From: an uncultured archaeon
Lineage (GTDB): Archaea > Asgardarchaeota > Thorarchaeia > Thorarchaeales > Thorarchaeaceae
DNA length: 32,000 nucleotides
Assembly (NCBI GenBank): GCA_964648855.1
Contig: CAZYLT010000006.1
Coordinates: 98,069-130,068 of the forward strand
Direction of reading: 5' to 3'
A model generated the notes under the pieces. The model was not told where the DNA came from. It saw only the letters and a program-made list of their open reading frames with translations, and searched no databases. A program made the position numbers and the translations under genes. The number at the start of each line of letters is the position of its first letter. Position 1 is the stretch's first letter. Below, in pieces: positions 2,708 to 26,430 of this stretch.

Positions 2708-2708
2708 T

Positions 2709-3173
2709 TTAGTTATCCTTCCCTGCTGGATTTGGTCCTAGCTTTTTGATTCTCTCTACCATTGCTGTTACGCCCTGAGTAAATACATCACCTTCAGCCG
2801 CGCTTGCCCATTGAAGATGGACACGTTGTGAGTCTATACCCGCCTCCTTCAACATAGTTTGGAGTAACACAAATCTGCCTCTCATCTTGAGGTTACCGCT
2901 TGTGTAGTGACAATCACCAGGATGACACCCACTGATGAGAACACCGTCTGCGCCTTGATTTAGTGCATCAAGAATGAAAACAGGATCTATTCGCCCCGTG
3001 CAGTTGATTCTGATGACCCGCACATTTGAGGGCATCTGCATCCGGCTTGTTCCCGCAAGGTCTGCCCCGGCATAACTGCACCAGTTGCAGCAAAACGCCA
3101 AGATTCGGGGTTCAAAGCCTGACTGCCGCTTCTTTTTCTTTTTCATGGCTGTCGTCTGACTTACTGATGTCAC
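2709..3173 (-). CDS. mvhD: Hydrogenase [2Fe-2S] subunit delta (all-Cys form)
   Basis: FCCNWCSYAGADLAG, CTGRIDP, GADGVLISGCHPGDCHY. Start is probably GTG 3173 (GGAGGT 9 nt upstream) or ATG 3146, rather than 3299. Confidence 0.95.
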   Translation of the reverse strand: MTSVSQTTAMKKKKKRQSGFEPRILAFCCNWCSYAGADLAGTSRMQMPSNVRVIRINCTGRIDPVFILDALNQGADGVLISGCHPGDCHYTSGNLKMRGRFVLLQTMLKEAGIDSQRVHLQWASAAEGDVFTQGVTAMVERIKKLGPNPAGKDN

Positions 3174-3433
3174 GCTGGAATGACCTCCTGCGGCTTGTTG
3201 CTCGCTATGATTATTGATTATTAAGATTCTGTTTAGTCGCACTTTTCTTTGGGCAGAAGCAATCATAATTCTTCTTAGAATTATGGTTTTCAAACACATT
3301 GAGATCTAGTGTTTCACGATAGTTTCTCATCCACGCATTCATGTCTTTCATCTATCGAGTTTAGCAACAGTTTTTATGTCCCGCTCCTTATGGTACATGA
3401 GTTGCTGAGCTATAACTGGAACGGTGAAATGAT

Positions 3434-3702: not shown

Positions 3703-5589
3703 CTAGTGATTTTCATCCAGGTCTAGTCGTTTCAGGGTTTCCTTCGTTGGCAGTCCTGTTTCTGGGTCCCATCCTCGGACCTCATAGTATTCATCTAGCA
3801 TTTCATTCAATTCCACAACCTCTCCCTTCGATGGCCCTTTCGGCGCAGGCACGTCAGTAAGCCTCTTTGGAAGCTGGTCATCTTTTCGAGTTACACCCCG
3901 TCTAGCGTTGAAAAGGCGGTTGAGATTAACTATTCTCTCACCAATCTCTCTCAGTTCCTCTGTTGTGAACTCAAGTCCATTATGTATCTTTAGACCGACT
4001 GCGACATCATCATAGTAGAATTCAGGCGGTATTTGTGTGCCATATTTGCACAATCCAACGCTTTCAACAACGACCATATAGTTCTCTGATTCTGCTACCA
4101 TGATTCCTTTGTACTTCGGATTCAGTCGTTCAGCCATCTCGGGAAGATACTCCTCTCCAAAACGCTCCTTTATATCATCATCAAATCCAACTTCGTCCAA
4201 GACTGGAAAGGCGTAGAGATGGTCCGCGCCTCTTGCAGCAGTGACTGCAGCAAGTCCCATCGACTTCTGGGCTCGGGGCTCCTGCCCAGCTATCTCCTGT
4301 TTTTTAACAGTCATAACAAACTCTTCAGTTCCCCGACCAATCTGTTCCGCTGCACGTTGACTCCCTTCGGCGAGGATATCACCAAAACCCTTGCGATAGG
4401 CTATCATCCGGGTTAGTTCTACAATTGCTTCATGATTGCCCCAACTGAGATCTACACCCCCTGTATCCTCCGCCGTAATAAGGCCCTCATCCCAGGCCTC
4501 CATCGCCCAAGATATAGTCCCACCAAGGGAGATTGTATCCATTCCGAATTGGTTTGCCAAATGATGGCTATACAGGATTGATTCCACATTCTCATTACCG
4601 CATCGAGAACCTAGTGCGGCCTGTGACTCAAACTCCGGCGACCCGCCCTCATAACAATAGGGCCCCTTGGGCACTCGTGTGTAACGACCGCATCGCTGCA
4701 GACACGCCCAGTCGGACCTTGGCTTCACCAAATAGTTTTCATTAATGGCTTCCCCACCGATCTTTTCGTATCCATCGAAGACCCCTTGTTTCATATTATA
4801 GGAGGGCAGTCGGCCGATGTTGTGCATCAATTCGATTAAACTAGTTGTGCCATATTTCGCTCTGTCGGGGGTGAACGGATTATCAAGCATTCGCCGGTGG
4901 AACTCATCCATTCGTTTCAGATATACATCCGGTTCTGCAACCTCAATCTTACCTGTTCCACGAATAGAGATCGCTTTAAGCTTCTTTGACCCCATCACAG
5001 CGCCCAGGCCAGAACGAGCCGAGGCTCTATCACGGTCATTCATGATCGCTGCAAAACGGACGAGATTCTCTCCAGCTTGACCAATGGCTAGTGTTCGACA
5101 TCGTATGCCATGGCGCTCTCTCAAAATATCGTCTGTTTCGAAGACATCCTTTCCCCACAAATCACTCGCATCAAGGATTTCCACTGTTTCATTCCTGATG
5201 TTAAGATAGACCGGTTCTTTAGATGCCCCTGTAAAGAAGATTGCATCATACCCTGCAAGCTTTAATTCTGGCCCCCAAAAACCAGCAGCGTGACTCTCGC
5301 CCCATATATCCGTGAGTGGTGAAAGCGCCGCAATAACGTGTCTTGATGCCTGTGGAAACATCGAACCAGTGAGTAGACCAGTTGCCATTCCCAGTACATT
5401 CTCGGGGGACAGTGGGTCTGTATCAGCAGTTGTTCTGTCATAGATGACCTTGGATAGAAGGCCTGCACCAAGGAGGTACTTTTGAATTAGTTCTTCATCA
5501 AGAGGTTTCTTCTCTATCTCCTTTGATGTGAGATTTACCCAAAGGATTTGTCCTCCCACGCCCTTTACCATCCTATTCAGCACCTCCAT
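3703..5589 (-). CDS. Tungsten-dependent aldehyde:ferredoxin oxidoreductase family protein (AOR-1)
   Basis: DPLSPEN, SPLT, GPAG-like GQAGENLVRFA, RSGLGAVMGSKKLKAI, GMDTISLG, RGADH, YYEVRGWD...GLP. Confidence 0.95.
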   Translation of the reverse strand: MEVLNRMVKGVGGQILWVNLTSKEIEKKPLDEELIQKYLLGAGLLSKVIYDRTTADTDPLSPENVLGMATGLLTGSMFPQASRHVIAALSPLTDIWGESHAAGFWGPELKLAGYDAIFFTGASKEPVYLNIRNETVEILDASDLWGKDVFETDDILRERHGIRCRTLAIGQAGENLVRFAAIMNDRDRASARSGLGAVMGSKKLKAISIRGTGKIEVAEPDVYLKRMDEFHRRMLDNPFTPDRAKYGTTSLIELMHNIGRLPSYNMKQGVFDGYEKIGGEAINENYLVKPRSDWACLQRCGRYTRVPKGPYCYEGGSPEFESQAALGSRCGNENVESILYSHHLANQFGMDTISLGGTISWAMEAWDEGLITAEDTGGVDLSWGNHEAIVELTRMIAYRKGFGDILAEGSQRAAEQIGRGTEEFVMTVKKQEIAGQEPRAQKSMGLAAVTAARGADHLYAFPVLDEVGFDDDIKERFGEEYLPEMAERLNPKYKGIMVAESENYMVVVESVGLCKYGTQIPPEFYYDDVAVGLKIHNGLEFTTEELREIGERIVNLNRLFNARRGVTRKDDQLPKRLTDVPAPKGPSKGEVVELNEMLDEYYEVRGWDPETGLPTKETLKRLDLDENH

Positions 5590-6058
5590 ACAGCTTGTCT
5601 TCGTGTTCCTCGTACAGCCGTTTCAAACGCCCATCTTCGTCCTTTTTCTCAAGGCCTTCGTCAGTTGTCATCCATATGGCAAAAACAGGACATCTCTTGA
5701 TACACTGACCACATTGAATACATTTGATGGCTTTGCCCGTATCAGGATTGATTTTTATTGCATCATATGGGCACGCCTCTATGCAATCACCATGGCCTTT
5801 GCACTTATTCTTGTCAATAACAACAATCCCCTTTGATGTTCGCCTGATTGCCTCTTCTGGACATGCCTCAATACACGGTGCATCTTCGCAGTTACGGCAG
5901 AATAGTGGAAAATCAAGTCCGTTTTCTAAGCGTACAATTCTATTCCTTGCCTGTTGTGGACTGATGACTTTGTAAAAGTGCATGCTACATGTCATCGAAC
6001 AAATCATGCATCCTGTACAGACCTCCGGGTCTCCAAATACGAATCTTCGAGTAGACAT
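5573..6058 (-). CDS. 4Fe-4S polyferredoxin subunit (DmsB/CooF-like) partnering AOR-1
   Basis: CTGCMICSMTC, CRNCEDAPCIEACP, CKGHGDCIEACP, KCIQCGQCIKRCP. Confidence 0.92.
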   Translation of the reverse strand: MSTRRFVFGDPEVCTGCMICSMTCSMHFYKVISPQQARNRIVRLENGLDFPLFCRNCEDAPCIEACPEEAIRRTSKGIVVIDKNKCKGHGDCIEACPYDAIKINPDTGKAIKCIQCGQCIKRCPVFAIWMTTDEGLEKKDEDGRLKRLYEEHEDKLYGGAE

Positions 6059-6070
6059 TCTGGCATACCT

Positions 6071-7429
6071 CTATAGTTGGATTGCGTCACCCATTTTCTG
6101 GAACTGACCATGTCCTGGCTTTATGGTTGTCCTATCCTCTTCAAATACTTTGACACCCCGCACAAATGTCATAATGGGGGCTCCTGTCATTTCCATCCCT
6201 TCATACAATGTCCAGCCACATTTTGAAAAAATCATATCTGCAGAGATTTTTTCCTTCTTGGTCAGGTCGATCAAGACCATATCGGCGTCGGATCCCACTG
6301 CAAGTACCCCCTTCTTTGGGTATAAACCAAAGAGCTTGGCTGGTTTGCTTGAAGTGACTTCAACCAAGTGATGAAAAGTCAATCGATTCTTGTTGATTCC
6401 TTCAGACAGCAATACTCTACTTATCATCTGTACACCATCTACGCCTGCCCACGCGTTTCGAATATCATGCTCGCCCTCTTCCTTCTTCTCAATGGGAGCG
6501 GGTGCATGATCACTGACAACGATATCGATAGTCCCTCGAAGCAAGGCTGACCATAAAGCAGCTCTATCTTGTTTGCTCCGCAGCGGGGGATTCATCTTGC
6601 TTTTTGTGCCAAGGCGATTCATCTCATCTCTATGAAATTGTAAATGGTGTGGACAGACCTCTGTTGTTACAAGATTGCCATTTAGCTTCGCTCGTTCAAC
6701 CGAAACTAATGCCCCTCTCGTGGTGATATGTGCGATATGGAGGTGTCCTCCTGTCTTCTTCAATATGGCAATGTTACGCTCAACCGCTATTTCCTCTGCA
6801 ATTTCTGGACGCGAGAGTGCATGACTTATCGGAGCATCCCATTCTCCATCCATTCTACCAGAGAATTCGTCTAGTATATCTCTATCCTCAGAGTGGATCG
6901 CTAGGTGTCCTCCGTGTTCAGAGGTCTCGCTTAGGGCTCTGAGAATAGCTCCACCTCTTGCGTAAAATGGCTCTGCTGTAAAGGCCTTGAAGGCAGCGAC
7001 TCCTGCACTCAAGAGTTTTGGAATCATTCCAACATTCTCTGATGTCAGCATTCCACCATAAAAGGAAAAATCCACGATAGACATATTCTCTCCCAATTCA
7101 ACTTTGCGTTCAACTGCCTCAACAGTATCCACTTGGGAAACCAGTGGCATGTCAACAACTGTTGTTACTCCTCCTGCAGCAGCAGCTCTGCTACCAGTTG
7201 TAAAATCCTCATGTTCCTCCATCTCTGGATCGTGAATATGCGCATGACCATCAATTAGCCCTGGGAGGAGATATTTCTTCTCGGCATCAATAGTCTCATC
7301 AGCTTCAGGTAAGTGTTCGTCAGAAGCGATTAAGGCGATTCTCCCATTTGACACTCCCACTCCGCCTCTTACTATTCCACTCTCAAGAACAAGCTTCGCA
7401 TTTTTGATTACTAAATCCAATTTCTTCAC
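6071..7429 (-). CDS. Cyclic amidohydrolase, allantoinase/dihydropyrimidinase-like
   Basis: PGLIDGHAH, AAAAGGVTTVVDMPL, FKAF (carbamylated Lys), IHSE, HIAH, EVCPHHL, NPPLR, SDHAP. DMPL and WAGVDGVQ resemble AllB; lacks the dihydroorotase HxHxR and MPN motifs. Confidence 0.85.
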   Translation of the reverse strand: MKKLDLVIKNAKLVLESGIVRGGVGVSNGRIALIASDEHLPEADETIDAEKKYLLPGLIDGHAHIHDPEMEEHEDFTTGSRAAAAGGVTTVVDMPLVSQVDTVEAVERKVELGENMSIVDFSFYGGMLTSENVGMIPKLLSAGVAAFKAFTAEPFYARGGAILRALSETSEHGGHLAIHSEDRDILDEFSGRMDGEWDAPISHALSRPEIAEEIAVERNIAILKKTGGHLHIAHITTRGALVSVERAKLNGNLVTTEVCPHHLQFHRDEMNRLGTKSKMNPPLRSKQDRAALWSALLRGTIDIVVSDHAPAPIEKKEEGEHDIRNAWAGVDGVQMISRVLLSEGINKNRLTFHHLVEVTSSKPAKLFGLYPKKGVLAVGSDADMVLIDLTKKEKISADMIFSKCGWTLYEGMEMTGAPIMTFVRGVKVFEEDRTTIKPGHGQFQKMGDAIQL

Positions 7430-7432
7430 CTT

Positions 7433-7714
7433 TTATCCTCCCCCCACTGGTGGAAAGATTGCGATTGCATCCCCAGATTCAAGCTCAGTCCCATGGCCAT
7501 CGAGGGTTTCTATTCTCTTCCCATTAACCATGACCGAAAAGAATCTTCTGAGCTCTCCAGTTTCAGGATTGAATACGGTCTTCTCAAATTCTGGTCCAAG
7601 GTCATGCTTCAGCTTTTCAAGAAGCTCTCCAATGTTTGTGGCACTCATCTCCAGTGATTTCCTTCCCGCCTTCTCTCTCACGGTTGCAAAGAACTTGACT
7701 ATGACCTCTGGCAT
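7433..7714 (-). CDS. moaD: MoaD/ThiS/SAMP ubiquitin-like sulfur carrier
   Basis: VKFFATVRE...VMVNG...GDAIAIFPPVGGG C-terminus; first gene of an AOR operon. Confidence 0.92.
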   Translation of the reverse strand: MPEVIVKFFATVREKAGRKSLEMSATNIGELLEKLKHDLGPEFEKTVFNPETGELRRFFSVMVNGKRIETLDGHGTELESGDAIAIFPPVGGG

Positions 7715-7860
7715 ATGGTTGCCTCGCCTATTTGCCTTGGTGAGATGAGATATTAATAATTCCTAATGGACAGCTGTGGATTTTCTTGATTATATCCATC
7801 TTTTTTCACTCTGGAGATATACAATTTCCCCCATTTTCTAGGTAGAGTGTCCAACAAAAG

Positions 7861-7880
7861 TGTCAGATTTTTGTCAGATT
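7861..7880. repeat. Tandem direct repeat TGTCAGATT x2 (11-bp period)
   Basis: tgtcagatt at 7861-7869 and 7872-7880, in the divergent intergenic region. Confidence 0.5.
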
Positions 7881-7911
7881 CCTCCTTTGCCTAATCCGGA
7901 ATCGGTCGTAT

Positions 7912-7924
7912 GGGAGATTAAATA
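7912..7924 (+). promoter_or_regulatory. BRE/TATA-like promoter for the putative ncRNA
   Basis: Purine run GGGAGA followed by TTAAATA (7918-7924), about 26-28 nt before the GC-rich structured stretch begins. Confidence 0.55.
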
Positions 7925-7949
7925 GCCCTAATCACATAGAATAGTGGAC

Positions 7950-8340
7950 TAGGTGAGTGGGCCAGCAACATCGTGCGGAGCTCGCCGCCGAAAGCCCGAG
8001 GGAAGAAGTCTTCTTCTCGACGGAGGTCCGTACTCTCCACCAATGGGAACCCATCATCTCCCGGAGAGTCCGCGGCTGTTCACCATGCTCAGATATGTCT
8101 TGCTGACTTCGGCGACGGAGCCAGTACGGGTGATCATGAACCCGCCGTGATAAGAACTGTGGAAAGCCTCCCTGTGGCTGAGGGTGATGCCTCAGCAGTA
8201 ACACAGGTGGAGGAAACCAGGACCGTGTGAGGAATACTATCCCGATGACCATGGACAAAGCCCCTGCTCACTCAGTGGCCTTCGGGTACACTGGGGACGG
8301 CGACACTGGCAGGGAACGGGTGGAACACAGAAGTTTCACA
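7950..8340 (+). ncRNA. Unassigned ~390-nt highly structured non-coding RNA candidate
   Basis: More than 12 nested helices visible by eye, a cUUCGg tetraloop (8280-8285), a k-turn-like arm and a terminal hairpin. GC content is higher than the flanks, there is no credible ORF, a TATA lies upstream and the next gene has its own TATA. Confidence 0.75.
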
Positions 8341-8364
8341 CAATTTGAGTTCATTCAATCTGTC

Positions 8365-8380
8365 AGAAATAGTTTATATA
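8365..8380 (+). promoter_or_regulatory. BRE/TATA promoter of the PfkB kinase gene
   Basis: AGAAATAG-TTTATATA (TATA 8373-8380), 60 nt upstream of ATG 8441. Confidence 0.6.
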
Positions 8381-8440
8381 GGCAAGGAATGGAATATATC
8401 TTCCTGAGCAGGTCTTTTACATAGTACTGAGGCCATCTAG

Positions 8441-9331
8441 ATGGAAATCATTGTCGTAGGACATCTGAGCAGAGATTTGATAATCACTCCTGACTATGAA
8501 CGTGAGGCACTTGGTGGTGCAGCTGCCTATGCCATGATTGCTCCCCATCTTGGTGCTCTTGGTGCAGGGATAGTATCACGAGTGGGAGAAGATTTCGAAC
8601 AGACATATGTTGACGATCTCCGTGAGGCGAATTTAGATCTCTCCGGTCTACGAGTTGCTGGAGAAAAAACGACCCGGTTTGTCAACAAGTACGATAAGGA
8701 CGGTAATCGGACGCAATACGTTGAGGCGGTAGCTCCCCAAATCTATCCAGCTGATTTCTCTCCAGAGCATCTTGAAGCCAATATCTTTCATTTCAGCCCC
8801 ATTATCGGTGAAGTACACCCCAACTGTATTGAAACGACAAGGACCTACGGTGTACTGATTTCACTTGATGTTCAAGGCTATGTGCGGGAGAATGATGAAG
8901 GAAAAGTGATACCCAAGGAATGGACGGATGCGGAGCAAATTATTCGACATGTGGACATCGTAAAGTGTGACAAAGAAGAGATGCAGCTTTTTGCGGATGA
9001 TTACTCCGAAAAGGATAGTGCTGAAAAGATTCTGAGGTGGGGCCCTCATGCTGTTATCGTTACCAAGAGCCAGGAGGGTTCATCCATTTATACTAGAAAT
9101 GCTCAAGCTGATATTCCTTCAGTGGGTCCTGAAGATTATGTTGATTCAACTGGCTGTGGGGATACTTATGCAATTGCCTTTCTGCTTGAATATATGAGAA
9201 CTGGCGATGTGAAAAGGGCGGGGCTTTTTGGGGCTTCAGCATCTTCATTTAACCTCGAACATGTTGGACCGTATTCTATGTCGTCGCGCTCAGAGATTGA
9301 AGATCGAATGAAGACATATATGGAAGCCTGA
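8441..9331 (+). CDS. PfkB/ribokinase family sugar or nucleoside kinase
   Basis: VVGHLSRD, LGGAAAY, SRVGED, SLDVQG, DSTGCGDTY signature. Confidence 0.92.
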   Translation: MEIIVVGHLSRDLIITPDYEREALGGAAAYAMIAPHLGALGAGIVSRVGEDFEQTYVDDLREANLDLSGLRVAGEKTTRFVNKYDKDGNRTQYVEAVAPQIYPADFSPEHLEANIFHFSPIIGEVHPNCIETTRTYGVLISLDVQGYVRENDEGKVIPKEWTDAEQIIRHVDIVKCDKEEMQLFADDYSEKDSAEKILRWGPHAVIVTKSQEGSSIYTRNAQADIPSVGPEDYVDSTGCGDTYAIAFLLEYMRTGDVKRAGLFGASASSFNLEHVGPYSMSSRSEIEDRMKTYMEA

Positions 9332-9394
9332 GCACCTAATTCAAAACGCTTTTCTAGTCACTGATATTCTCTCAAAGAGTGCTGAGGTGACCCT

Positions 9395-10579
9395 TTGCTC
9401 GAAGACCTTGATGACTTGATGGAAATTCAAGAGATTGACTCTCTCATGGTTACGGGAAATGCATTCGATAATCCAGATGTCTACTGGCTCACCGGTTTTC
9501 GTTCTCCTGACAACGTTATATGCTTACACAATCATGGAGAGGAAACCATAGTTGCCACTGCATTCAAAACCCTTGAGAGGCTGGAGAAGGAGAGTTTCAT
9601 CGAAAAGACCTTTGACCTCACCGAGCTCTATCAATCCTTTATGGAACGTGGAGAACGTGCAACAGATAATCCTGAGAAAGTGATGGACGAGATTCTCAAG
9701 GAGAATTTTAATGGAAAAGTGATGGGGGTGCCCAAGCGATTCCCATCAGATATGCTAATTGCCATCCAAAAGTTGGGATGCGAGGTAAAGCCGGTTCCTG
9801 ATTTACTCCTGCAAGCCAGAGCGACCAAATCTGAAGAGGAAATCAAGATGATTGAGAAGGCAGGAGAAGCTACTATCTCCGCCCTATCAAAAGTTGTTGA
9901 GATGATTAAGAATACTGGAGTTGGCGCTAATGACATATTGATACGCGATGGTGAACCACTCACTGTACGTGATGTCAAGCAAGCATTGAATCACAACCTG
10001 CTCGATCTGTCGGCTGAGGCGGCTGAAGATTCGATTGTTGCCGTTGGTCAGATGGGGTTTGACTGGCACTATCTTGGAAATCCTGATGATGAGATAAAAG
10101 CCAATGTTCCAATTATTATAGATGTCTTTCCTCGACTTAAGATTGAACGATACGTGGCTGATGTCACCCGGACCGTCGTGAAGGGAACTCCCTGCGATAA
10201 GGTCAGGGAGATGTTTTACGCTGTCATGGAGGCTGGAGATGCAGTACTGGATGAGATGACCGCCGGTGCCAAAATCGATGACGTCAACATGGCATGCTAC
10301 AACACCCTCAAGAAGCATGGCTTTGATTCTTCAAGGCTCAATCCTGGCGCAATGGAAGGAATGACGCATAGTCTTGGTCACGGCATTGGACTAGAGGTCC
10401 ATGAGTATCCGAGCATGTATGTTCGCGATGGGAAATTCAAGGAGGGGCATGTGGTGGCTATTGAGCCGGCAGTATATTTGATGAACGAAGGGGGAGTTCG
10501 CATCGAGAATGACTTTGTAGTGACCAAAGATAAGCCTCGGAGAACTACCATGGGGCTGGAAGAGATATTGTATCTATAG
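9395..10579 (+). CDS. Xaa-Pro aminopeptidase/prolidase (M24B)
   Basis: RATKSEEEI, IIIDVFP...ADVTRT, HSLGHGIGLEVHE, AIEP, GGVRIEND; SD GAGGTGA before the TTG start. Confidence 0.93.
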   Translation: MLEDLDDLMEIQEIDSLMVTGNAFDNPDVYWLTGFRSPDNVICLHNHGEETIVATAFKTLERLEKESFIEKTFDLTELYQSFMERGERATDNPEKVMDEILKENFNGKVMGVPKRFPSDMLIAIQKLGCEVKPVPDLLLQARATKSEEEIKMIEKAGEATISALSKVVEMIKNTGVGANDILIRDGEPLTVRDVKQALNHNLLDLSAEAAEDSIVAVGQMGFDWHYLGNPDDEIKANVPIIIDVFPRLKIERYVADVTRTVVKGTPCDKVREMFYAVMEAGDAVLDEMTAGAKIDDVNMACYNTLKKHGFDSSRLNPGAMEGMTHSLGHGIGLEVHEYPSMYVRDGKFKEGHVVAIEPAVYLMNEGGVRIENDFVVTKDKPRRTTMGLEEILYL

Positions 10580-10584
10580 AGGAC

Positions 10585-11679
10585 CTAGTCTACACTTAGT
10601 GCATAGAACGGACAAACAGAGATGCACATCCCACACCTCTGGCATTTCTCTTCATCGATTTCAAAGAGGTCTTCTTTCTTGTTCACTGTGATGGCACGAT
10701 ATACACATGACTTTTCACAGAGTCCACATCGAGTGCACTTCTCCAGATTGACTTGAGGCTTGTTTCTCAGAGCATGTTCCTCTTTCAAGTGAGGAAGTGC
10801 CAATCCAATCAACTGACTGACAGAATTATAATCGTGTTCTTTGAGCCAATCAGAAATCTCACCTGCAATTCTACCATAGACTGTCTGTCCCTCAAGGATA
10901 GCGGCAGTACATACTTGAACGGCAGATGCGCCAGCCATCATAAACTCGATAGCATCTTCTCCAGAGGAAACTCCCCCGACCGCAATGACCGGAATATCAA
11001 CAGAGCTGGCAATATCTGCAACGCATCGCATTGCAATGGGTTTCAGAGCTGCACCGCTCAGCCATCCCTCTCCTCCATCACTACCTAAAAATGGTTTTCC
11101 AGTTTCTATGTCAATGTGTAGGCAAGGACCGTACGTGTTGATTGCGACAATCCCATCCACATGTTTCTCAACATCCTTAGCAACTGCCGCAACATCGACC
11201 TTCGGACTGAGTTTAGCAAAAATTGGGATTTCTACAGCATCTTTCAATGCTTTTGCAATCTCGACGTGTCCACCAACATAGTGTGTACTAAATTCGATGG
11301 CATGCATACCCGCATCTTCAATCTTCGGAGCAATCTCAGCAACTTCTTCAGGTGTATATCCAACACTGGCTATGACGGGAAGTCCAGAACTCAAAGCAAT
11401 AGGATACTCGCTTTCAAGCCATTGACACAACGAAATTTCACTCCAGAGTTCAGCGTTAAGCAACCCACGCCGTGATTTCACCCTTCCTCGCCCGAGTGCA
11501 GTTATGTTGGGATTAGGAACTTTTGCTGGCTTGATACTAACAGTCTTTGCCACTAATCCGCCGGCGCCCCCCGTAGCAGCATTAAGCAGGGTCATACCAT
11601 CTCGCGCAGCCGGTCCTGCAGCTGTAAGCACGGGATTCCTGAGTTTAAGACCTGCTAAGTTGACTTTGAGATCTGGCAT
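10585..11679 (-). CDS. Dihydropyrimidine/dihydroorotate dehydrogenase-like FMN protein with C-terminal 2x[4Fe-4S] (PreA architecture)
   Basis: LRNPVLTAAGP, VAKT, NAELWSE, PIFAKLSP, AINT, GWLSGAALKP, VGGV, AGASAVQVCTA, CTRCGLCEKSC, CQRCGMCISVCP. Confidence 0.88.
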   Translation of the reverse strand: MPDLKVNLAGLKLRNPVLTAAGPAARDGMTLLNAATGGAGGLVAKTVSIKPAKVPNPNITALGRGRVKSRRGLLNAELWSEISLCQWLESEYPIALSSGLPVIASVGYTPEEVAEIAPKIEDAGMHAIEFSTHYVGGHVEIAKALKDAVEIPIFAKLSPKVDVAAVAKDVEKHVDGIVAINTYGPCLHIDIETGKPFLGSDGGEGWLSGAALKPIAMRCVADIASSVDIPVIAVGGVSSGEDAIEFMMAGASAVQVCTAAILEGQTVYGRIAGEISDWLKEHDYNSVSQLIGLALPHLKEEHALRNKPQVNLEKCTRCGLCEKSCVYRAITVNKKEDLFEIDEEKCQRCGMCISVCPFYALSVD

Positions 11680-11728
11680 AGCTCTTTTTCTTTATATCTC
11701 AGCATATGAATCCTACCCAAATTCGTGG

Positions 11729-13666
11729 TCATTGCTGACTAGCAAGCATTTTTCTCTTTTTGAGGTCGTCAGCAACGTAATCCAACCGGAGTTCGTTCAA
11801 TTTTGACTCTAGGGGAAATCCGGTTTCTAGATCACATCCACGGTACTCATAATACTCATCAAGCATCTCGTCCAAGTCGGGAAGTCCGCCCTTGGCGGGG
11901 CCTGTGGGCATCGGTTCCTTCAAAAGACGTCTTGGAAGGGTTTCCTGTTCCCGTGTTATTCCTAAACGATGATTATAGGCCCGTCGAAGATGGCTGATTC
12001 GTTCTCCTGTTCTCTTGACGAAGGCTAGGTCTGTCCAGTCATTCATGCCCGTTAGAGGGGCGATTACGTTGGCAAATGTTTCGTAGTAATAGACTGGTGG
12101 CCACATGACACCATACTTGCAGATGACTGCTGAGTCTGTTAGTGCATACAGGTCCTCCATGTCTTTGATTAGTTCTCCCTTGTACTTTGGACTCATTATT
12201 TTCAAAATATCCTCAGCTTTTTCTTCACCAAACCGATGTATCGCAATCTCAGGATATCCGAGTTCTTCAAGACTGGAGAGACTGCGGAGATGATCAGCGC
12301 CACGTACATTTGTAGCGTAGGTTAATCCTACTGATTGATGTGCTCTCGGATCCTGACCAGAAGCCTCGAGCCCCTTTGAATGGACCGCATACTTCCACGC
12401 CTCTCCTCCGATTATGTCCGCTGCTTCTCGAGTTCCTTTCGCGAGTATCTCGCCAATGCCCTCCTTTTTCGCAATCAGCTCGACAAGCTCTACCATGGAG
12501 TCGATATTACCCCAACTCAAGTCCAACCCATTCGTGTCCTTCTTGTCTATGATACCTTTCTCCCATAGTTCCATGGCAAACCCAATCGTCTTTCCGCAAG
12601 AGATTGTGTCCATCCCAAGAAGGTCGCAACGCTTGCCGAGATGGAAGACCGATTCAATATCATCATTCATGCAGTTGCTACCAAATGCCATGATGGTTTC
12701 GTATTCAGGACCACCCACGGGTGTTGTCTTGAACTCCCCTTCATTGACCCTAATAATGTATTTACAGCCGACGACGCAACCATGGCAGGCCTCTTGGGCG
12801 ATGCGATACTGGTTGGCAATTATCTCAGGGCCAATTTTGTCTGCGTTCTCAAAATATCCCGTCCAATGATTCTTTGTGGGAAGACGTCCTATTTCATTGA
12901 TCATTGAAACCAAATCAGTGGTTCCGTACTTTCTCAAAGACTCAATAGAGCTGGCCCATAGGGGGTCTCTAACTCTTGCCATCTCTTCTTCGTTAGCCTT
13001 GAGATATGCGTCCATGTCATGGGCTTCAATGCCCATTGATCCACTGACAGCAATGCCTTTCACTTTCTTAGAGCCCAAAACTGTTCCAAGTCCCGCTCGA
13101 CCAGCCGCCCTGTAGTAATCCACTATGATGGCACCATAGAGCACCCCGTTTTCCCCAGCAGGTCCTATGACTGCGGTTTCTATTGAGGGGTCTTTGTGTT
13201 TTTCTCGAATCATATCCGTGGCGACATTCGTTTCTCTTCCCCAGAGGTCGGATGCCTCGAGGAGTTCTGCTGTCCCATCCTGAATGAAGAGATAGACTGG
13301 TTTTTCTGACCTTCCATTGAAGATAACAAAATCATATCCGGCATACTTTAGCTCTGGTCCGAAGAATCCTCCAGAGTGGCTTTCCGCCCAGACTCCGGTG
13401 AGCGGTCCCTTTGTGGCAAACATGAATCTTCCAGAGGGTGAGAACATTGAACCTGTTAGAGGTCCCGTGCCAACAACTAGTACGTTCTCTGGCGATAGTG
13501 GGTCTGTTGACGGCCCCGTGCGGTCCCAGAGGATTTTGGCAGCCACTCCAGTTCCGCCAAGATAAAGCCTTGCCCATTCTTTCTCCATCTCTTTCTTGTG
13601 GATCTTGCCCTTCTCCAAGTCAATGTCTAGGTATTTTCCGGCATATCCTTTGTAGGGAAATGTCAT
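11729..13666 (-). CDS. Tungsten-dependent aldehyde:ferredoxin oxidoreductase family protein (AOR-2)
   Basis: IGPAGEN, GRAGLGTVLGSKKVKGI, CHGCVVGC, PEYET, GMDTISCG, RGADH, ICK. Confidence 0.95.
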   Translation of the reverse strand: MTFPYKGYAGKYLDIDLEKGKIHKKEMEKEWARLYLGGTGVAAKILWDRTGPSTDPLSPENVLVVGTGPLTGSMFSPSGRFMFATKGPLTGVWAESHSGGFFGPELKYAGYDFVIFNGRSEKPVYLFIQDGTAELLEASDLWGRETNVATDMIREKHKDPSIETAVIGPAGENGVLYGAIIVDYYRAAGRAGLGTVLGSKKVKGIAVSGSMGIEAHDMDAYLKANEEEMARVRDPLWASSIESLRKYGTTDLVSMINEIGRLPTKNHWTGYFENADKIGPEIIANQYRIAQEACHGCVVGCKYIIRVNEGEFKTTPVGGPEYETIMAFGSNCMNDDIESVFHLGKRCDLLGMDTISCGKTIGFAMELWEKGIIDKKDTNGLDLSWGNIDSMVELVELIAKKEGIGEILAKGTREAADIIGGEAWKYAVHSKGLEASGQDPRAHQSVGLTYATNVRGADHLRSLSSLEELGYPEIAIHRFGEEKAEDILKIMSPKYKGELIKDMEDLYALTDSAVICKYGVMWPPVYYYETFANVIAPLTGMNDWTDLAFVKRTGERISHLRRAYNHRLGITREQETLPRRLLKEPMPTGPAKGGLPDLDEMLDEYYEYRGCDLETGFPLESKLNELRLDYVADDLKKRKMLASQQ

Positions 13667-13667
13667 C

Positions 13668-14159
13668 TTAGACCTCCTCCTGGACAGTTTGTATCTTCGC
13701 TACTGGTTTGATTCCACTCTTGCGACTAAGTAGTGCATTCTCAGAGAACTCGACGTATTCGATTGCACCATATTCGCATGCCTTTACACACGCTGGGTCC
13801 CCATCACACAGGTCACACTTTGCCGCTTTCTTCAATACTGGATCCATTGAGATTCCCCCATAGATACAAGCTGTCACACATCTCCCGCAACCTATACAGA
13901 TGTCAGGTTCCACGTAGAGTGCCCCGCTGGAGTTTGGTCTAATGGCCCCCGTTGGGCATGCACCGTGGCAGAGGGGGTCCTCGCACTGGAGACACACCAT
14001 GGGCAGAATGATGCCCTTTTTCTCATTCTTTATGACCTTGATTCGAGACTGGCTCGGATTGAATGTTCTATAGTGCGCCACCGAACATGCGAGCTCGCAA
14101 TTACGGCAGCCTGTGCATTTTTGGACATCAATTGTTAGGATGTGTTTCATTTTTTCCAT
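13668..14159 (-). CDS. 4Fe-4S polyferredoxin subunit partnering AOR-2
   Basis: CTGCRNCELACS, CLQCEDPLCHGACP, CIGCGRCVTAC, KCDLCDGDPACVKAC. Confidence 0.93.
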   Translation of the reverse strand: MEKMKHILTIDVQKCTGCRNCELACSVAHYRTFNPSQSRIKVIKNEKKGIILPMVCLQCEDPLCHGACPTGAIRPNSSGALYVEPDICIGCGRCVTACIYGGISMDPVLKKAAKCDLCDGDPACVKACEYGAIEYVEFSENALLSRKSGIKPVAKIQTVQEEV

Positions 14160-14363
14160 CCTCTGTTCGTGTTCTGGACGCAGTCTAGGTGTCTATAATG
14201 TTTGTACTTTAACTTGTTGTAATCCACGCTGAAATGAATTCATGTTTTCCAGACTTCCACCGAATCAGTATATATGGCATAAGTATTAGTAGATATTATA
14301 CCGTGCTGCCATTGCTGAGTTAGAGAGGGTACATGGCGAAAAAGATCGTAGAGCAATCTAGGC

Positions 14364-16184
14364 GTGAATAAGCAGATGACAGACAACTCTGGAACAACCC
14401 CCTCAATAACATCAAGTCTTGAGCAAATCAGAATGATACTAGAGGACATCGGGCTTGCGGTCATAGAATTGGACGAGCAGTTCCATTTGGTCTACGCGAA
14501 TGCAAGTGCTCAGAAGCTATTGGGTATCGATGAGAATGATTTGAAATCCAAGATAATCGCAACAGATTTGGTTGTTGACGAACAGAAATCGCTCGTTGTT
14601 CGGGGTCTTGAGAGCCTTGCCGAGGGTGTTGAACCAACCCCTATTACACTACGAATAAGACGGTCAGATGGCGTAGAAACCTTGGCTGAAGTATTCAGCG
14701 AGCTAATCATCGAAAATGATGAGGTCATCGGTTTTCGGGCATATGCCTTCGATTTGACTCGACGGCTAGCACTTGAAGAACGGTTCAAAGAAAAGGAAGA
14801 TATCTTTCAACTCATTGTTGAAAATGCAAGCTTCACAGGTATCTTGGTTGTTAATGGCGACTATCGGTTTGAATATGTGAATGATAAATTATGCGACATG
14901 GTGGGATTGTCCCGACATGACCTCTTGGGCCTTGACTTCCGAGAAGTACTGCACCCTGAGAGTGTAGACCTAGTCGCGGAGCGATATATTAGGCGACAAC
15001 GAGGTGAGAAGGTACCACGAGAATATGAGTTTCAAATAATCCGTGCTGATGGTGAAGTCAGAGATGTTATGATCAGCAGCAGTATAATCCGTAGTAATGA
15101 TGAGCGAGTGAAAACAGTTGCTCAGCTCCTCGACATAACCGAGGAGAAACAAAGCAAGCATAAACTCGAGGAGAGTGAGCGACGACATAGAACACTGATA
15201 GAAACTATGGACTCAGGTTTGGCTGTAGATGACGAAGAAGGTATCACGGTTCTAGTAAACAAATCTCTTGCCGATATGCTTGGATATGATACGGTAGATG
15301 AGATGATCGGTAGACCTATCACTGACTGGATTCACGGATGGACAGAAAAGAATGTCAAGGAGAAGATGCAGCTCAGGAAGGCTGGTCAGAAAGAGAGCTA
15401 TGAGCTGACTCTGCAAAGAAAAGACGGCAAAATTGTGCCAACTATCGTACATGCCTCTCCAATTTTTGACCCATATTCAAATTACGTGGGCAGCTTCGCA
15501 GTATTCACAGATGTTGCTGAATTGAAAAAGGCTGAAGCAGAAGTAAGATTCTTTCTTGATCTGTTATTGCATGATATTGGAAATCAGCTGCAACTTATCT
15601 TGGCAGGAGCTGACATGCTCTCTAGAGACGCCGATGAAGATCAGATATCCCGATCGAAACAATATGTTCTGGACGGTGCTCATCGATGCCTTAGTGTTAT
15701 CACCAATATTCGTCGCACTGAGCAATCTAAGAGTGAACCGCTGGCTCCGGTGAACCTGACGGAGGTACTTAAGACGCAGGTTCTCCTGTTTTCAGGGCAA
15801 TATGGTGTTCACCCCACGCTGAAAGAGCTTCCCGATTCAATGTATGTTATCGCTGATAGCGCTCTAGGACATCTATTCTGGAATTTGATGGAAAACAGCG
15901 TAAAACACAATCCAAAAGATGAGAAGACTCTAGAAATCACTGGAGAACGAAATGGGGAAACCTTCATCGTGAGCTTTGTGGACAATGGTCCAGGTCTGGA
16001 AGATAATCAGAAGCAATCGCTTCTCGACCCAACACGACGGTCTGGAGGCGTAGGTCTTCATCTTATCAGGAGAATGATGGACAAGTACGGTGGAACGATC
16101 CATGTTGATGACCGAGTTGAAGGCAGTCCAGAAGAGGGCCTGTGTATTAGAATAGAGCTTCAAATAGCTGAAGACAAATCATAG
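14364..16184 (+). CDS. Cytoplasmic PAS-domain sensor histidine kinase (3 PAS + HisKA/HATPase)
   Basis: Three PAS repeats (YAN/YVN/LVN...LLG), H-box LLHDIGNQL, N-box NLMENSVKH, DNGPG, GVGL; no transmembrane helices evident. Confidence 0.92.
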   Translation: MNKQMTDNSGTTPSITSSLEQIRMILEDIGLAVIELDEQFHLVYANASAQKLLGIDENDLKSKIIATDLVVDEQKSLVVRGLESLAEGVEPTPITLRIRRSDGVETLAEVFSELIIENDEVIGFRAYAFDLTRRLALEERFKEKEDIFQLIVENASFTGILVVNGDYRFEYVNDKLCDMVGLSRHDLLGLDFREVLHPESVDLVAERYIRRQRGEKVPREYEFQIIRADGEVRDVMISSSIIRSNDERVKTVAQLLDITEEKQSKHKLEESERRHRTLIETMDSGLAVDDEEGITVLVNKSLADMLGYDTVDEMIGRPITDWIHGWTEKNVKEKMQLRKAGQKESYELTLQRKDGKIVPTIVHASPIFDPYSNYVGSFAVFTDVAELKKAEAEVRFFLDLLLHDIGNQLQLILAGADMLSRDADEDQISRSKQYVLDGAHRCLSVITNIRRTEQSKSEPLAPVNLTEVLKTQVLLFSGQYGVHPTLKELPDSMYVIADSALGHLFWNLMENSVKHNPKDEKTLEITGERNGETFIVSFVDNGPGLEDNQKQSLLDPTRRSGGVGLHLIRRMMDKYGGTIHVDDRVEGSPEEGLCIRIELQIAEDKS

Positions 16185-16241
16185 ACACCAAAATTGTTAA
16201 TTCTAGTAGTCTTCATTGTCATCCATCGTGGAGAAGATATC

Positions 16242-17639
16242 ATGCCCAAGTCAGATTCCATTTTGATTGAGAACGGATATGTACTGACGCTTAATCCCGA
16301 ACGAACGATTATCAAGAATGGCGCAGTGTATGTGGAAGATACGAAGATAGTAGATGTTGGCAAGAGTGAGGAGCTTTCCAAGTACCCTGCTGACAGAGTT
16401 CTTGATGCAGGCGGAGGCATCATAATGCCTGGGCTCATCGATACGCACACGCATCTTGCCCAAGCCCTCATCCGAGGATGTGCGGATGATGTCTCTCTGG
16501 TCGATTGGTTGAAGAAATACGTGTGGGTGCTACAGGGTAACTTTACTGAATTGGATGGAAAGGTGTCTGCTGAGCTATGTATGGCCGAGATGATAAAGAG
16601 CGGGACCACATCTTTCATTGAATGCATGATTCACGCAAGATACGGGTTCGATGGTATTGCTCGTGCCGTAGAACGTATCGGAATGCGGGCTGCCCTCTCA
16701 AAGATTATTATGAACTCTACTGGCTACGCGGATAGCCCTGATATCATGTACCCCGGTATGGTTGAGGAAGAAGAGGCATGCCTCCGAGAAACTAAAGAGA
16801 TGCTGGGTAAATGGCATGGCGAAGCGGATGGCCGTCTGCAGGTGTGGTATGGGCTACGGTCTCTTGGAGCTGTCACTGACGATTTATTCAAGAAGGTTGT
16901 TCATCTGGCTGACGAGCACGACACTCGCATGACCATGCACTTGGGCGAAGTTGTGGACGACGTTCGTTATGTAAAGGAGAAGGGATACAAGAATCTGACC
17001 TCCTTTGCAGAGGATATGGGATTACTTGGCCCCAATATGGTCTTTGCACATGGCATCCATTTCGATGACTCCGAAATAGACCTCTTAGCAAAGACACAAA
17101 GCAATATCTCGCATTGCCCAGCAAGCAATATGAAACTCGCATCAGGATTTGCAAAAGTGCCCCTGATGCTGCAGAAGGGCGTTCCCGTATCATTGGGCTG
17201 CGATGGTGGGCCAAGCAACAATACCTATGACATGGTCTCGGAGATGAGGCTTGCTGCACTCATTCACAAGGCGTATTGTGATGACCCTTTGGTAATACCC
17301 GCAGAAGACGCGATTGAGATGGCAACTTTGGGTGGGGCCAAAGCCATGGGGATCGATGAGCAAGTGGGTTCCCTAGAGATTGGGAAACTGGCCGACATAA
17401 TCGTCGTCAACATGGATCATACGGGACTCACTCCGCATCCCAATCCCGTCTCGAATCTTGTGTATGCTGGGTCGGGACACTATGTTGACACCGTGATGTG
17501 TAATGGAACCCTGTTGATGCTTGACCGCGAACTACTCACTCTTAATGAGGAACAAGTCAAGAAACAGGCAAACACGCAGATCCATTCTTTGCTAGAACGC
17601 GCGGAGATCACCATCGAACCGAAGTGGAATGCGCAGTAG
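16242..17639 (+). CDS. Amidohydrolase, MTA/SAH / 8-oxoguanine / guanine deaminase-like family
   Basis: PGLIDTHTHLAQALIRG, SGTT, HLGE, HCPASNMKLASG, GCDG..SNN, GSLEIGKLAD. ATG 16242 preferred over 16194. Confidence 0.9.
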   Translation: MPKSDSILIENGYVLTLNPERTIIKNGAVYVEDTKIVDVGKSEELSKYPADRVLDAGGGIIMPGLIDTHTHLAQALIRGCADDVSLVDWLKKYVWVLQGNFTELDGKVSAELCMAEMIKSGTTSFIECMIHARYGFDGIARAVERIGMRAALSKIIMNSTGYADSPDIMYPGMVEEEEACLRETKEMLGKWHGEADGRLQVWYGLRSLGAVTDDLFKKVVHLADEHDTRMTMHLGEVVDDVRYVKEKGYKNLTSFAEDMGLLGPNMVFAHGIHFDDSEIDLLAKTQSNISHCPASNMKLASGFAKVPLMLQKGVPVSLGCDGGPSNNTYDMVSEMRLAALIHKAYCDDPLVIPAEDAIEMATLGGAKAMGIDEQVGSLEIGKLADIIVVNMDHTGLTPHPNPVSNLVYAGSGHYVDTVMCNGTLLMLDRELLTLNEEQVKKQANTQIHSLLERAEITIEPKWNAQ

Positions 17640-20884: not shown

Positions 20885-20957
20885 TCTTGGTCACCAAGTT
20901 CTTACAACTCGAACTTCACAGAGTCCTATAATGATTATGTATCATCCAACTATATGG

Positions 20958-23239: not shown

Positions 23240-23339
23240 TTTGGAATTCCTGTAATCATCAGAGGAATTGCTTCACAGCAACTCAGTTGTCACTGAAGCA
23301 GATCGGAAGTGTATAACCTACTCGGGATTACGGGCTCTA

Positions 23340-24122: not shown

Positions 24123-24139
24123 AGTTTTCGCAATTCTCT

Positions 24140-26313: not shown

Positions 26314-26430
26314 GACTTTACACCTAGTTCCTGCAGTGCTTCACACTCTGATATGGTTTACTTATTCTCTATGAAGCGGTATTATGAGAAAGGCTAATAC
26401 GTGAGCCTTACATTCAGGAGTGTGGTAGCA

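Follow-up and report, generated by a model that had tools for sequence, protein, structure and literature searches.

Two operons encoding enzymes of the aldehyde oxidoreductase (AOR) family were found in a 32,000-nucleotide (nt) stretch of DNA from an uncultured archaeon of the Thorarchaeaceae (Asgardarchaeota; NCBI GenBank assembly GCA_964648855.1, contig CAZYLT010000006.1, positions 98,069 to 130,068, forward strand), and this whole stretch is referred to here as the window. Within positions 3703-17639, these enzymes, their iron-sulfur (FeS) subunits, a cyclic amidohydrolase and a flavoprotein form a gene island, which an earlier reading of the sequence alone (the original prediction) had interpreted as a tungsten-dependent route for the anaerobic catabolism of purines or pyrimidines. 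Comparison of gene order, active-site residues and distribution among genomes suggests that the island very probably serves purine-ring catabolism as a module of the 2,8-dioxopurine type. On a more tentative reading, a separate clade of AORs may act in it at the place of xanthine dehydrogenase (XDH)-type molybdenum enzymes.

Gene content of the island

By using open reading frame (ORF) calls together with Pfam and NCBIfam assignments, two tight operons were delineated on the minus strand (Table 1). The first comprises, in order, genes for a MoaD-like protein, the cyclic amidohydrolase, the small subunit FeS1 and the large subunit AOR1, and the second those for FeS2, AOR2 and a flavoprotein that combines a DHO_dh domain with two [4Fe-4S] clusters. 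Intergenic distances within both operons range from -17 to +49 nt, and the amidohydrolase gene sits inside the AOR1 operon with only a few nt to its neighbours. On the plus strand, the genes for a PfkB-family kinase and an M24 metallohydrolase lie between the two operons, and those for a PAS-domain kinase and a TRZ/ATZ amidohydrolase lie beyond operon 2. All of these genes were located where the original prediction had placed them, except the M24 gene, which was absent from its list. A further large subunit, AOR3, is encoded with its own FeS subunit on another contig (C5) of the window genome (94.6% complete, 3.1 Mb), unlinked to the island.

Table 1. Genes of the island and its surroundings in the window.
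Feature	Position	Strand	Basis
AOR1, AOR/WOR large subunit, Gln clade	3703..5589	-	Pfam AFOR_N + AFOR_C, motifs, tree
FeS1, AOR1 polyferredoxin small subunit	5573..6058	-	Fer4 families; 15 Cys; 17-nt overlap with AOR1
Cyclic amidohydrolase, allantoinase/DHOase/hydantoinase type, probable HyuA counterpart (5-substituted hydantoin ring opening)	6071..7429	-	NCBIfam, reciprocal best hit
MoaD/SAMP-like sulfur carrier, pterin-cofactor accessory	7433..7714	-	ThiS; TIGR01687 moaD_arch; C-terminal GGG
PfkB-family kinase	8441..9331	+	Pfam PfkB
M24 metallohydrolase, prolidase/creatinase fold	9395..10579	+	Peptidase_M24 + Creatinase_N
UacX-type FMN + 2x[4Fe-4S] flavoprotein, probable 2,8-dioxopurine (or related purine) ring reductase	10585..11679	-	DHO_dh + Fer4, loop signature
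AOR2, AOR/WOR large subunit, Gln clade; directly upstream of UacX-type gene	11729..13666	-	Pfam, PDB alignments, trees
FeS2, AorA-like polyferredoxin, 16 Cys (4x[4Fe-4S]), presumed AOR2-UacX electron wire	13668..14159	-	PDB match, Cys motifs
PAS x3 + HATPase_c sensor histidine kinase, possible regulator	14364..16184	+	Pfam; place kept in many Thor loci
TRZ/ATZ (COG0402) amidohydrolase, nucleobase-deaminase type	16194..17639	+	NCBIfam, identity to GuaD
VhuD/MvhD + small + large subunits, F420-non-reducing [NiFe(Se)] hydrogenase	486..3299	-	Pfam, NCBIfam
purB, adenylosuccinate lyase	24949..26313	-	TIGR00928
OTC-fold protein	26401..27414	+	Fold family; STRT and HPxQ motifs absent

An AOR clade with an altered active site

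AOR1 and AOR2 matched both PF02730 (at 3e-74 and 7e-74, respectively) and PF01314 (4e-129 and 1e-120). They are 43% identical to each other, and the segments by which the original prediction had linked them (GQ(E/D)PRA..S.GL, RGADHL, RFGEE, PKYKG and CKYG) were all recovered in their pairwise alignment. The nearest solved structures to both, at ~40% identity, are Acetomicrobium mobile WorL (9mqx), Pf AOR (1aor) and AorB (8c0z). Among 1.84 billion representatives, AOR2 had one close cluster at 54% identity and next matches at 44% or lower, and the best 120 proteins of its homologue search were all Thorarchaeota orthologues. Orthologues of AOR1 occur in other phyla at 56-65% identity.

Phylogenetic trees were built with FastTree and IQ-TREE (fast search, LG+G4, with SH-aLRT as the only support measure). 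AOR1, AOR2 and AOR3 were grouped in these trees, which agrees with the single subclade proposed originally for the first two. AOR2 and AOR3 appeared as sisters (SH-aLRT 99.8), AOR1 joined them at 89.3, and the whole clade, called here the Gln clade, received values of 80.7-97.3. The solved AORs were related to this clade by bit scores, alignments and motif states, outside the trees, and were represented in the motif table by one sequence with motif states resembling the 9mqx alignment.

It has been reported that four residues (Tyr310, Glu311, His444 and Tyr423 in the A. mobile numbering) are conserved in all solved tungsten enzymes (PNAS 2025; PMC12318220), and that the docked substrate is contacted by three of them, Glu311, His444 and Tyr423 (PMC12318220). 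The position of Tyr423 is occupied by Gln in AOR1, AOR2 and AOR3 and by Tyr in WorL, AorB and Pf AOR. Across 126 sequences, Gln at this site was essentially confined to the clade, and other branches had Tyr, His or other residues. AOR2 also has RGADH where the solved AORs have RGxCH. Apart from one cluster ligand of AOR1, the pterin and FeS motifs are retained in the window AORs, and the [4Fe-4S] ligands of AOR2 are canonical (CHGCVVGC...CKYG). In AOR1, the first of these ligands is Asp (DWACLQRC...CKYG; 4690-4716), a replacement shared by all AOR1 orthologues across phyla, including bacteria, except the Baldrarchaeota copy, which has Cys. The conserved YE reads FE in AOR1, with Phe for Tyr310 in Thorarchaeia. 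Rather than grouping with the characterised aldehyde oxidisers, an outcome that the original prediction had counted among the grounds for its refutation, the island AORs form a clade of their own with a changed active-site residue. Given their family membership, these enzymes are presumed to use tungsten. The window genome contains eleven AOR-family matches, which is a large paralogue set for 3.1 Mb, and one of them has an in-frame TAA (C1:241766-242836).

A probable UacX-type flavoprotein

The flavoprotein of operon 2 (PF01180, 2e-35) was aligned with dihydroorotate dehydrogenase (DHOD) B (1ep1) and pig dihydropyrimidine dehydrogenase (DPD; 1gt8), which showed that it keeps the flavin mononucleotide (FMN) barrel and two ferredoxin motifs (CxxCxxCxxxC, residues 315 and 346). 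It has in common with class 1 DHOD and PreA/PydA proteins the FMN TIM barrel followed by a C-terminal pair of [4Fe-4S] clusters. It differs from them in that the loop with the catalytic Cys, ELN(I/L)SCP(N/H), is replaced by a short IEFSTHYVGG, and in that the window has no gene for an NAD(P)H-dependent partner: a flavin adenine dinucleotide (FAD)/NAD(P)H module was not found in the flavoprotein, nor a PreT or PyrK gene among the window proteins, by Pfam and NCBIfam. The signature E(F/I/L)S(T/L)HY is present in every relative at least 45% identical, whereas ordinary PyrD/PreA relatives retain the Cys loop.

One of these relatives, from Clostridium sp. UBA701, is 48% identical, has the same loop signature and lies between SsnA and a hydantoinase, the full order being sigma-54 regulator, YgeY (632 bits), YgeW-like carbamoyltransferase, SsnA (551 bits), flavoprotein and D-hydantoinase. 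In C. difficile, UacX, a PydA homologue with FMN but without the FAD domain, replaces YgfK as the 2,8-dioxopurine reductase, and its electron donor is presumed to be reduced ferredoxin and not NAD(P)H (10.1101/2025.05.19.654654). The window flavoprotein is tentatively assigned to the UacX type on the basis of the loop signature and of the UBA701 gene position, which matches the C. difficile-type arrangement. The canonical reductive pyrimidine pathway was rejected in view of the missing catalytic Cys loop, the absence of PreT from the window and the purine context. Of the purine/pyrimidine island proposed originally, the pyrimidine part is not favoured, and the purine part is supported by the UacX-type flavoprotein and by counterparts of SsnA, HyuA, YqeA and YgeW in the genome.

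Electron-transfer subunits

FeS2, whose gene lies 1 nt from AOR2 and whose Cys residues fall into four cluster motifs, found its best PDB match in AorA (8c0z_C, E 2.7e-35), and the next best were 9mqx_E and the small subunit of WOR5. Since FeS2 is AorA-like, the order FeS-AOR-UacX mirrors aorA-aorB-aorC, with UacX at the place of the FAD subunit. In FeS1, the third cluster motif is non-canonical (CKGHGDCIEAC), and a non-Cys ligand or a 3Fe-type cluster may be present. A gene of the FeS1 type always adjoins AOR1 in the related loci.

Among the closest known systems are AorABC of Aromatoleum aromaticum (8c0z) and WorABCSL of A. mobile (9mqx), which share with the island the AFOR_N and AFOR_C domains, Glu311, His444 and the [4Fe-4S] cluster, an AorA-like 4x[4Fe-4S] subunit whose gene lies upstream of that for the large subunit, a MoaD-like accessory gene, and the gene order FeS, AOR, redox partner. 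On the other hand, the partner in the island is a substrate-reducing UacX-type FMN/FeS flavoprotein instead of an NAD-reducing FAD subunit or BfuABC, and no AorC-type FAD/NAD module was detected in the window by Pfam or NCBIfam. The large subunits also differ from the solved ones in the changes described above (Tyr423 to Gln, RGxCH to RGADH, the Asp ligand of AOR1 and Tyr310 to Phe). An AOR-family enzyme that acts on an aromatic ring with a polyferredoxin partner is known in BamB, of class II benzoyl-CoA reductase. BamB (4z3w) was only a distant match (216-239 bits, compared with 428-445 for 9mqx); unlike it, the window AORs retain the Glu/His pair of aldehyde oxidisers, and no Bam partner genes are present.

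Conservation of the neighbourhood

The recurrence of the neighbourhood in unrelated taxa, proposed as a check by the original prediction, was observed in several archaeal phyla and in some bacteria. In Thorarchaeia, the arrangement FeS2-AOR2-UacX / M24, PfkB / MoaD-amidohydrolase-FeS1-AOR1 is found in dozens of species with AOR identities of 75-79%, and synteny indicates that the placement of PfkB and M24 is kept in Thorarchaeia only. The AOR trio and UacX also occur in Hermod-, Baldr- and other Asgard lineages, Bathyarchaeia, Nitrososphaeria, Geothermarchaeota and other Thermoproteota, and the order FeS2-AOR2-UacX is kept across phyla at protein identities of 45-65%. The MoaD-like gene adjoins clade AORs in other phyla as well, and the amidohydrolase was found inside AOR operons of Thorarchaeia, Bathyarchaeia (one locus), Nitrososphaerota (three loci) and Korarchaeia (one locus). 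Shorter or partial contexts of clade AORs were seen in Korarchaeia (with a more distant DPD-like protein, 35%), Hodarchaeaceae and Hadarchaeia, where AOR1 adjoins a carbamoyltransferase and a pyridoxal phosphate (PLP) enzyme.

Among the archaeal loci, that of a Nitrososphaeria metagenome-assembled genome (MAG; L099) has two carbamoyltransferases around a hydantoinase, FeS-AOR2-UacX and FeS-AOR3, and in the same stretch a TRZ/ATZ deaminase, a ThrC-like PLP enzyme, an SsnA-like hydrolase and FeS-AOR1. A Desulfurococcales MAG (L109) contains a hydantoinase, an adenine deaminase, a TRZ/ATZ deaminase, two carbamoyltransferases and a carbamate kinase, together with an SsnA-like protein, UacX, a PALP enzyme and an M20 peptidase, and has no AOR in this cluster.

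In bacteria, the AOR trio accompanies UacX in Endomicrobia and further lineages. The cluster of one Endomicrobia MAG (L194:5752-20146) consists of genes for 8-oxoguanine deaminase, FeS, MoaD, AOR3, AOR1, FeS, FeS, AOR2, a radical-SAM/SPASM protein and UacX (47%). The deaminase, which is its first gene, scored 575 bits against a curated cut-off of 532, and the product of this enzyme is urate. A separate branch of Gln-type AORs was found in the bacterial lineage UBP18, in one case (L191:4368-14847) beside FdrA-like, AllG (oxamate carbamoyltransferase), Amidohydro_3, cyclase and purine nucleoside phosphorylase genes, and in another (L190) next to a PurU-like formyltransferase.

Distribution relative to Xdh-type hydroxylases

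The occurrence of the island genes was compared with that of Xdh-type molybdenum hydroxylases, scored by PF02738, in a sample of 200 Asgard genomes. The window genome, at the completeness given above, has no PF02738 match. In its family, a UacX orthologue is present in ~41 of 43 genomes and AOR2 in about the same ones, and PF02738 in none of the 43. One genus of a second family has both UacX and AOR2 in all 15 genomes, with PF02738 absent from all 19 genomes of the whole family. A genome of a third family (G029) has UacX and AOR2 (56%) and is not among the PF02738 holders listed, and the one genome of a fourth (G025; PF02738 0/1) has UacX and clade AORs at 45-48%, with no clear AOR2 orthologue. 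Altogether, ~58 sampled Asgard genomes contain UacX and a clade AOR, and none of them has an Xdh-type molybdenum hydroxylase; these counts include related, non-independent genomes and therefore overstate the strength of the pattern. Conversely, the Asgard genome G004 has UacX (51% identical) and four PF02738 genes, but no AOR2.

Ten further UacX genomes without the trio, namely seven of Desulfurococcales type (from two sampling rounds), one additional Desulfurococcaceae, Clostridium and Chloroflexia, had no AOR1 or AOR2 orthologue, their best matches being at 36-44%, and nine of the ten carry PF02738, with one to twelve genes each. The complementarity of the trio and Xdh-type enzymes was seen in several separate lineages on each side.

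In another Asgard family (e.g., G026:C1:2928874-2943925), a full-length DPD-like gene (36-37%) lies a few kb from two PF02738 genes, which looks like a bacterial-style arrangement of Xdh and reductase within Asgard archaea.

Remaining steps of the pathway

In the reductive uric-acid pathway, XDH converts hypoxanthine and xanthine to urate, and DOPDH/XdhD converts urate to 2,8-dioxopurine; after ring reduction, SsnA and HyuA open the ring, the ureido groups are removed with ATP formation via carbamate kinase, and 2,3-diaminopropionate is turned into pyruvate (10.1101/2025.04.24.650524). The known pathway includes no aldehyde intermediate (10.1101/2025.05.19.654654; 10.1101/2025.04.24.650524). 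It has so far been known in bacteria only, and neither 'archaea' nor 'tungsten' appears as a word in Li et al. (10.1101/2025.05.19.654654). In the literature searched, no paper was found that ties AOR-family enzymes to purine degradation or SsnA, or that describes the pathway in archaea or Asgard archaea.

Several of these steps have candidates in the window genome. The cyclic amidohydrolase scored 365 bits with the allantoinase model TIGR03178 (cut-off 358) and 307 bits with D-hydantoinase, and forms a reciprocal best-hit pair with E. coli HyuA (30% identity across the full length). The best NCBIfam matches of the window TRZ/ATZ deaminase were all under their cut-offs, and orthologues ~50% identical to it occur in the clusters of other Asgards and of the Desulfurococcales MAG. 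This protein was considered and rejected as SsnA, being 28% identical to E. coli GuaD and 24% to SsnA. The product of an SsnA-like gene on C22 and E. coli SsnA are reciprocal best hits (31%), and the former is 53% identical to the Nitrososphaeria protein. Two tandem YgeW-like carbamoyltransferases (30-31%; C15:37158-40322) are likely the working ones of the genome, and a YqeA-like carbamate kinase (48%; C3), an adenine deaminase (C14) and a ThrC-like PLP enzyme (C11), a candidate substitute for YgeX, were also identified.

With the reductive uric-acid pathway (10.1101/2025.05.19.654654; 10.1101/2025.04.24.650524), the island shares a putative UacX-type reductase and a HyuA-like hydantoinase, and the window genome shares SsnA-, YgeW- and YqeA-like genes and nucleobase deaminases for entry; the donor would not be NAD(P)H, as in the clostridial variant. 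Several differences are also evident. The known pathway uses an Xdh-type molybdenum hydroxylase, in place of which the window genome has Gln-clade AORs and polyferredoxins. The fullest archaeal clusters have two carbamoyltransferases, compared with the bacterial YgeW plus YgeY, and a ThrC-like PLP enzyme in the place of YgeX. In Thorarchaeia, the pathway genes are scattered over several contigs and no SsnA adjoins the reductase in the window, whereas an SsnA-like gene does adjoin it in other archaea.

Proposed function and alternative explanations

Based on these comparisons, a scheme can be proposed in which the TRZ/ATZ deaminase would supply the entry of amino-purines, the UacX-type flavoprotein would reduce the purine ring, and the HyuA-like amidohydrolase would open the hydantoin intermediate. 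The unlinked SsnA-like hydrolase, two carbamoyltransferases, carbamate kinase and ThrC-like PLP enzyme would supply the remaining steps, which lead to a C3 product, ammonia, CO2 and ATP. AOR1, AOR2 and AOR3 would serve as tungsten- (or molybdenum-) pterin hydroxylases/dehydroxylases, doing the job of bacterial XDH and DOPDH/XdhD. Formally, a metal-bound hydroxide attacking an electron-poor C-H of the ring beside nitrogen would resemble aldehyde oxidation. Electrons would be carried by the AorA-like polyferredoxins, with FeS2-AOR2-UacX as one module and UacX in the place of AorC. For hypoxanthine, two hydroxylations would yield four electrons, and C6 dehydroxylation and ring reduction would consume two each, with no need for an outside donor; a balance that closes in this way would fit a hard-wired complex. 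For substrates at the level of xanthine or urate, the adjacent Vhu/Mvh-type hydrogenase could provide electrons.

That the Gln-clade AORs act directly on purine ring carbons, as hydroxylases or dehydroxylases in the XDH/DOPDH place, is the preferred reading but is held tentatively. A shade more tentative is the complete scheme, in which the three paralogues, wired by polyferredoxins to UacX, turn purines into the ring-reduced intermediate with internal recycling of electrons and no Xdh-type molybdenum enzyme. The substitution is argued from the mutual exclusion with Xdh-type enzymes, from the two or three conserved paralogues, each with its FeS wire, from the altered active site in a pathway without an aldehyde, and from the fact that an Xdh-less genome still must make the substrate of UacX. 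The proposed role of the AORs is similar to that of XDH/DOPDH (XdhD, XdhAC; Se/Mo hydroxylases), i.e., moving ring oxygen on and off at C2, C6 and C8 with low-potential carriers, and both occur as several paralogues per organism beside the ring reductase. However, their folds are unrelated and without sequence similarity, and a molybdenum-molybdopterin cytosine dinucleotide (Mo-MCD) site with sulfido or selenido ligand stands against a bis-pyranopterin with tungsten or molybdenum.

Some observations weigh against this interpretation. Regarding the AORs, Glu311 and His444, the residues of aldehyde oxidation, are retained, and ordinary aldehyde chemistry is therefore possible; the characterised enzymes of the nearest AOR group are all broad aldehyde oxidisers; and WtpA (TIGR03730) was not found in the window genome. 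The flavoprotein had no BLAST match to E. coli YgfK, and its assignment was made via the UBA701 relative and not the C. difficile UacX sequence (Q181U4) itself. The SsnA-type gene lies outside the window, as do the carbamoyltransferases, the carbamate kinase and the PLP enzyme; the SsnA-like protein on C22 scored 389 bits against a curated cut-off of 444, and no clear YgeX or YgeY orthologue was found in the window genome, where YgeY gave weak M20 matches only. In addition to the relatedness of the genomes counted, the distribution includes a Desulfurococcaceae genome (G203) with UacX but neither PF02738 nor the trio.

Part of this evidence leads to a different role within the same purine island: the AORs might draw on an aldehyde or some other small donor and do no more than pass its electrons, at low potential, to the UacX-type reductase. 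The substrate of the reductase would in that case either require no hydroxylation or dehydroxylation beforehand or be prepared by an unrecognised enzyme. The retained Glu/His pair and cofactor motifs, the aldehyde-oxidising nearest solved relatives and the AorA-AorB-AorC-like gene order are all compatible with such a role. It also suits a UacX that lacks an FAD/NAD(P)H module and for which reduced ferredoxin is the proposed donor, as NAD(P)H-driven ring reduction is reported to be thermodynamically unfavourable (10.1101/2025.05.19.654654), which favours a source of very low potential. Nevertheless, this explanation, the main rival, appears less probable. Neither the pathway nor the conserved neighbourhoods show a step or enzyme that would form an aldehyde, three paralogues kept across phyla with their own wires are hard to square with a single donor role, and the clade has lost a substrate-contacting Tyr. 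Moreover, among UacX genomes the trio and Xdh-type enzymes are mutually exclusive, and Desulfurococcales and Clostridium have UacX without clade AORs.

More improbable is the degradation of another N-heterocycle or cyclic ureide, such as pyrimidines, hydantoins, pterins, methylated or 8-oxo purines or allantoin-type compounds, to which the reductase and AORs would be tuned accordingly. The amidohydrolase exceeds the allantoinase cut-off narrowly, the UacX activity comes from one preprint, identity between the archaeal proteins and the clostridial one is 45-48%, and PfkB and M24 have no assigned place; in addition, three bacterial loci (L065, L193 and L199) have an AOR pair beside a DPD-like protein that keeps the Cys loop, and a Gln-type AOR occurs beside oxamate-carbamoyltransferase-like genes. 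Yet the loop signature is identical to that of a protein in an SsnA/YgeY/HyuA context, the entry enzymes that accompany the clusters are adenine deaminase, 8-oxoguanine deaminase and GuaD-like deaminases, and no gene of the beta-ureidopropionase type was seen next to them. A purely accidental association, in which ordinary aldehyde:ferredoxin oxidoreductases of amino-acid or sugar fermentation happen to lie near nucleobase genes, is very improbable and already disfavoured. The eleven AOR-family genes of the genome, and Asgard papers that commonly assign AORs to peptide fermentation, could be cited for it, but chance would hardly account for a gene order shared by archaeal and bacterial phyla whose proteins are 45-65% identical, an amidohydrolase embedded in AOR operons, an active-site change specific to the clade, and a near-perfect co-occurrence of UacX and AOR2 orthologues in the 200 Asgard genomes.

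Implications of the proposed pathway

Known activities of the AOR family are the oxidation of aldehydes, the reduction of carboxylates and, in BamB, one ring reduction, and there is a substantial chance that the enzymes described here represent a new catalytic function for it. If the proposal that they act on the purine ring is true, the family would gain a chemistry so far confined to the unrelated xanthine-oxidase family, and a second, convergent family of purine hydroxylases would have arisen by non-orthologous displacement, with a Mo/Se hydroxylase giving way to a bis-pterin enzyme of the tungsten type. Anaerobic purine fermentation would then reach Asgard and other uncultured archaea, implying that Thorarchaeia and other abundant sediment archaea, usually called peptide fermenters, could ferment purines with substrate-level ATP formation by carbamate kinase. 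Nucleic-acid bases would thus be a source of carbon, nitrogen and energy in anoxic sediments, and the pathway via 2,8-dioxopurine would be much older and wider than the gut-bacterial setting in which it was discovered.

Other features of the window

Directly downstream of AOR1 are genes of a Vhu/Mvh-type hydrogenase, and about half of the Thor loci have them at the same place. The enzyme may link the island to H2 as a source or sink of electrons, although its membership of the island is uncertain. The PfkB kinase had weak NCBIfam matches to ribose-1-phosphate, nucleoside and sugar kinases, all far under the cut-offs. The 726-nt gap between the MoaD-like and PfkB genes (7715-8440) holds a 108-codon ORF (7932-8258, minus strand) with no Pfam match. 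At gathering thresholds, Rfam gave no match in the window, and a scan for bacterial-type promoters and terminators, with models that do not suit an archaeon, found no more than in shuffled controls.

Further on, purB and a YgeW-like fold had been noted originally in connection with the island. Both are present, but neither lends it support. The purB product was rejected as a pathway member, being a bona fide adenylosuccinate lyase (TIGR00928, 471 bits vs. a cut-off of 326), and the OTC-fold protein was likewise rejected, with PEPQDK, APQA and TQAP in place of the carbamoyl-phosphate motifs STRT, HPxQ and HxLP; judging from these residues, it is probably not a working carbamoyltransferase. The region 19673-24922 (minus strand) encodes an ABC-2 permease, a B12-binding radical SAM enzyme, two ORFs without a family match and an ABC ATPase, and no link to the island is drawn. 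The nearest related locus to the window is SDNP01000032 (Thorarchaeota), which is 92-93% identical.

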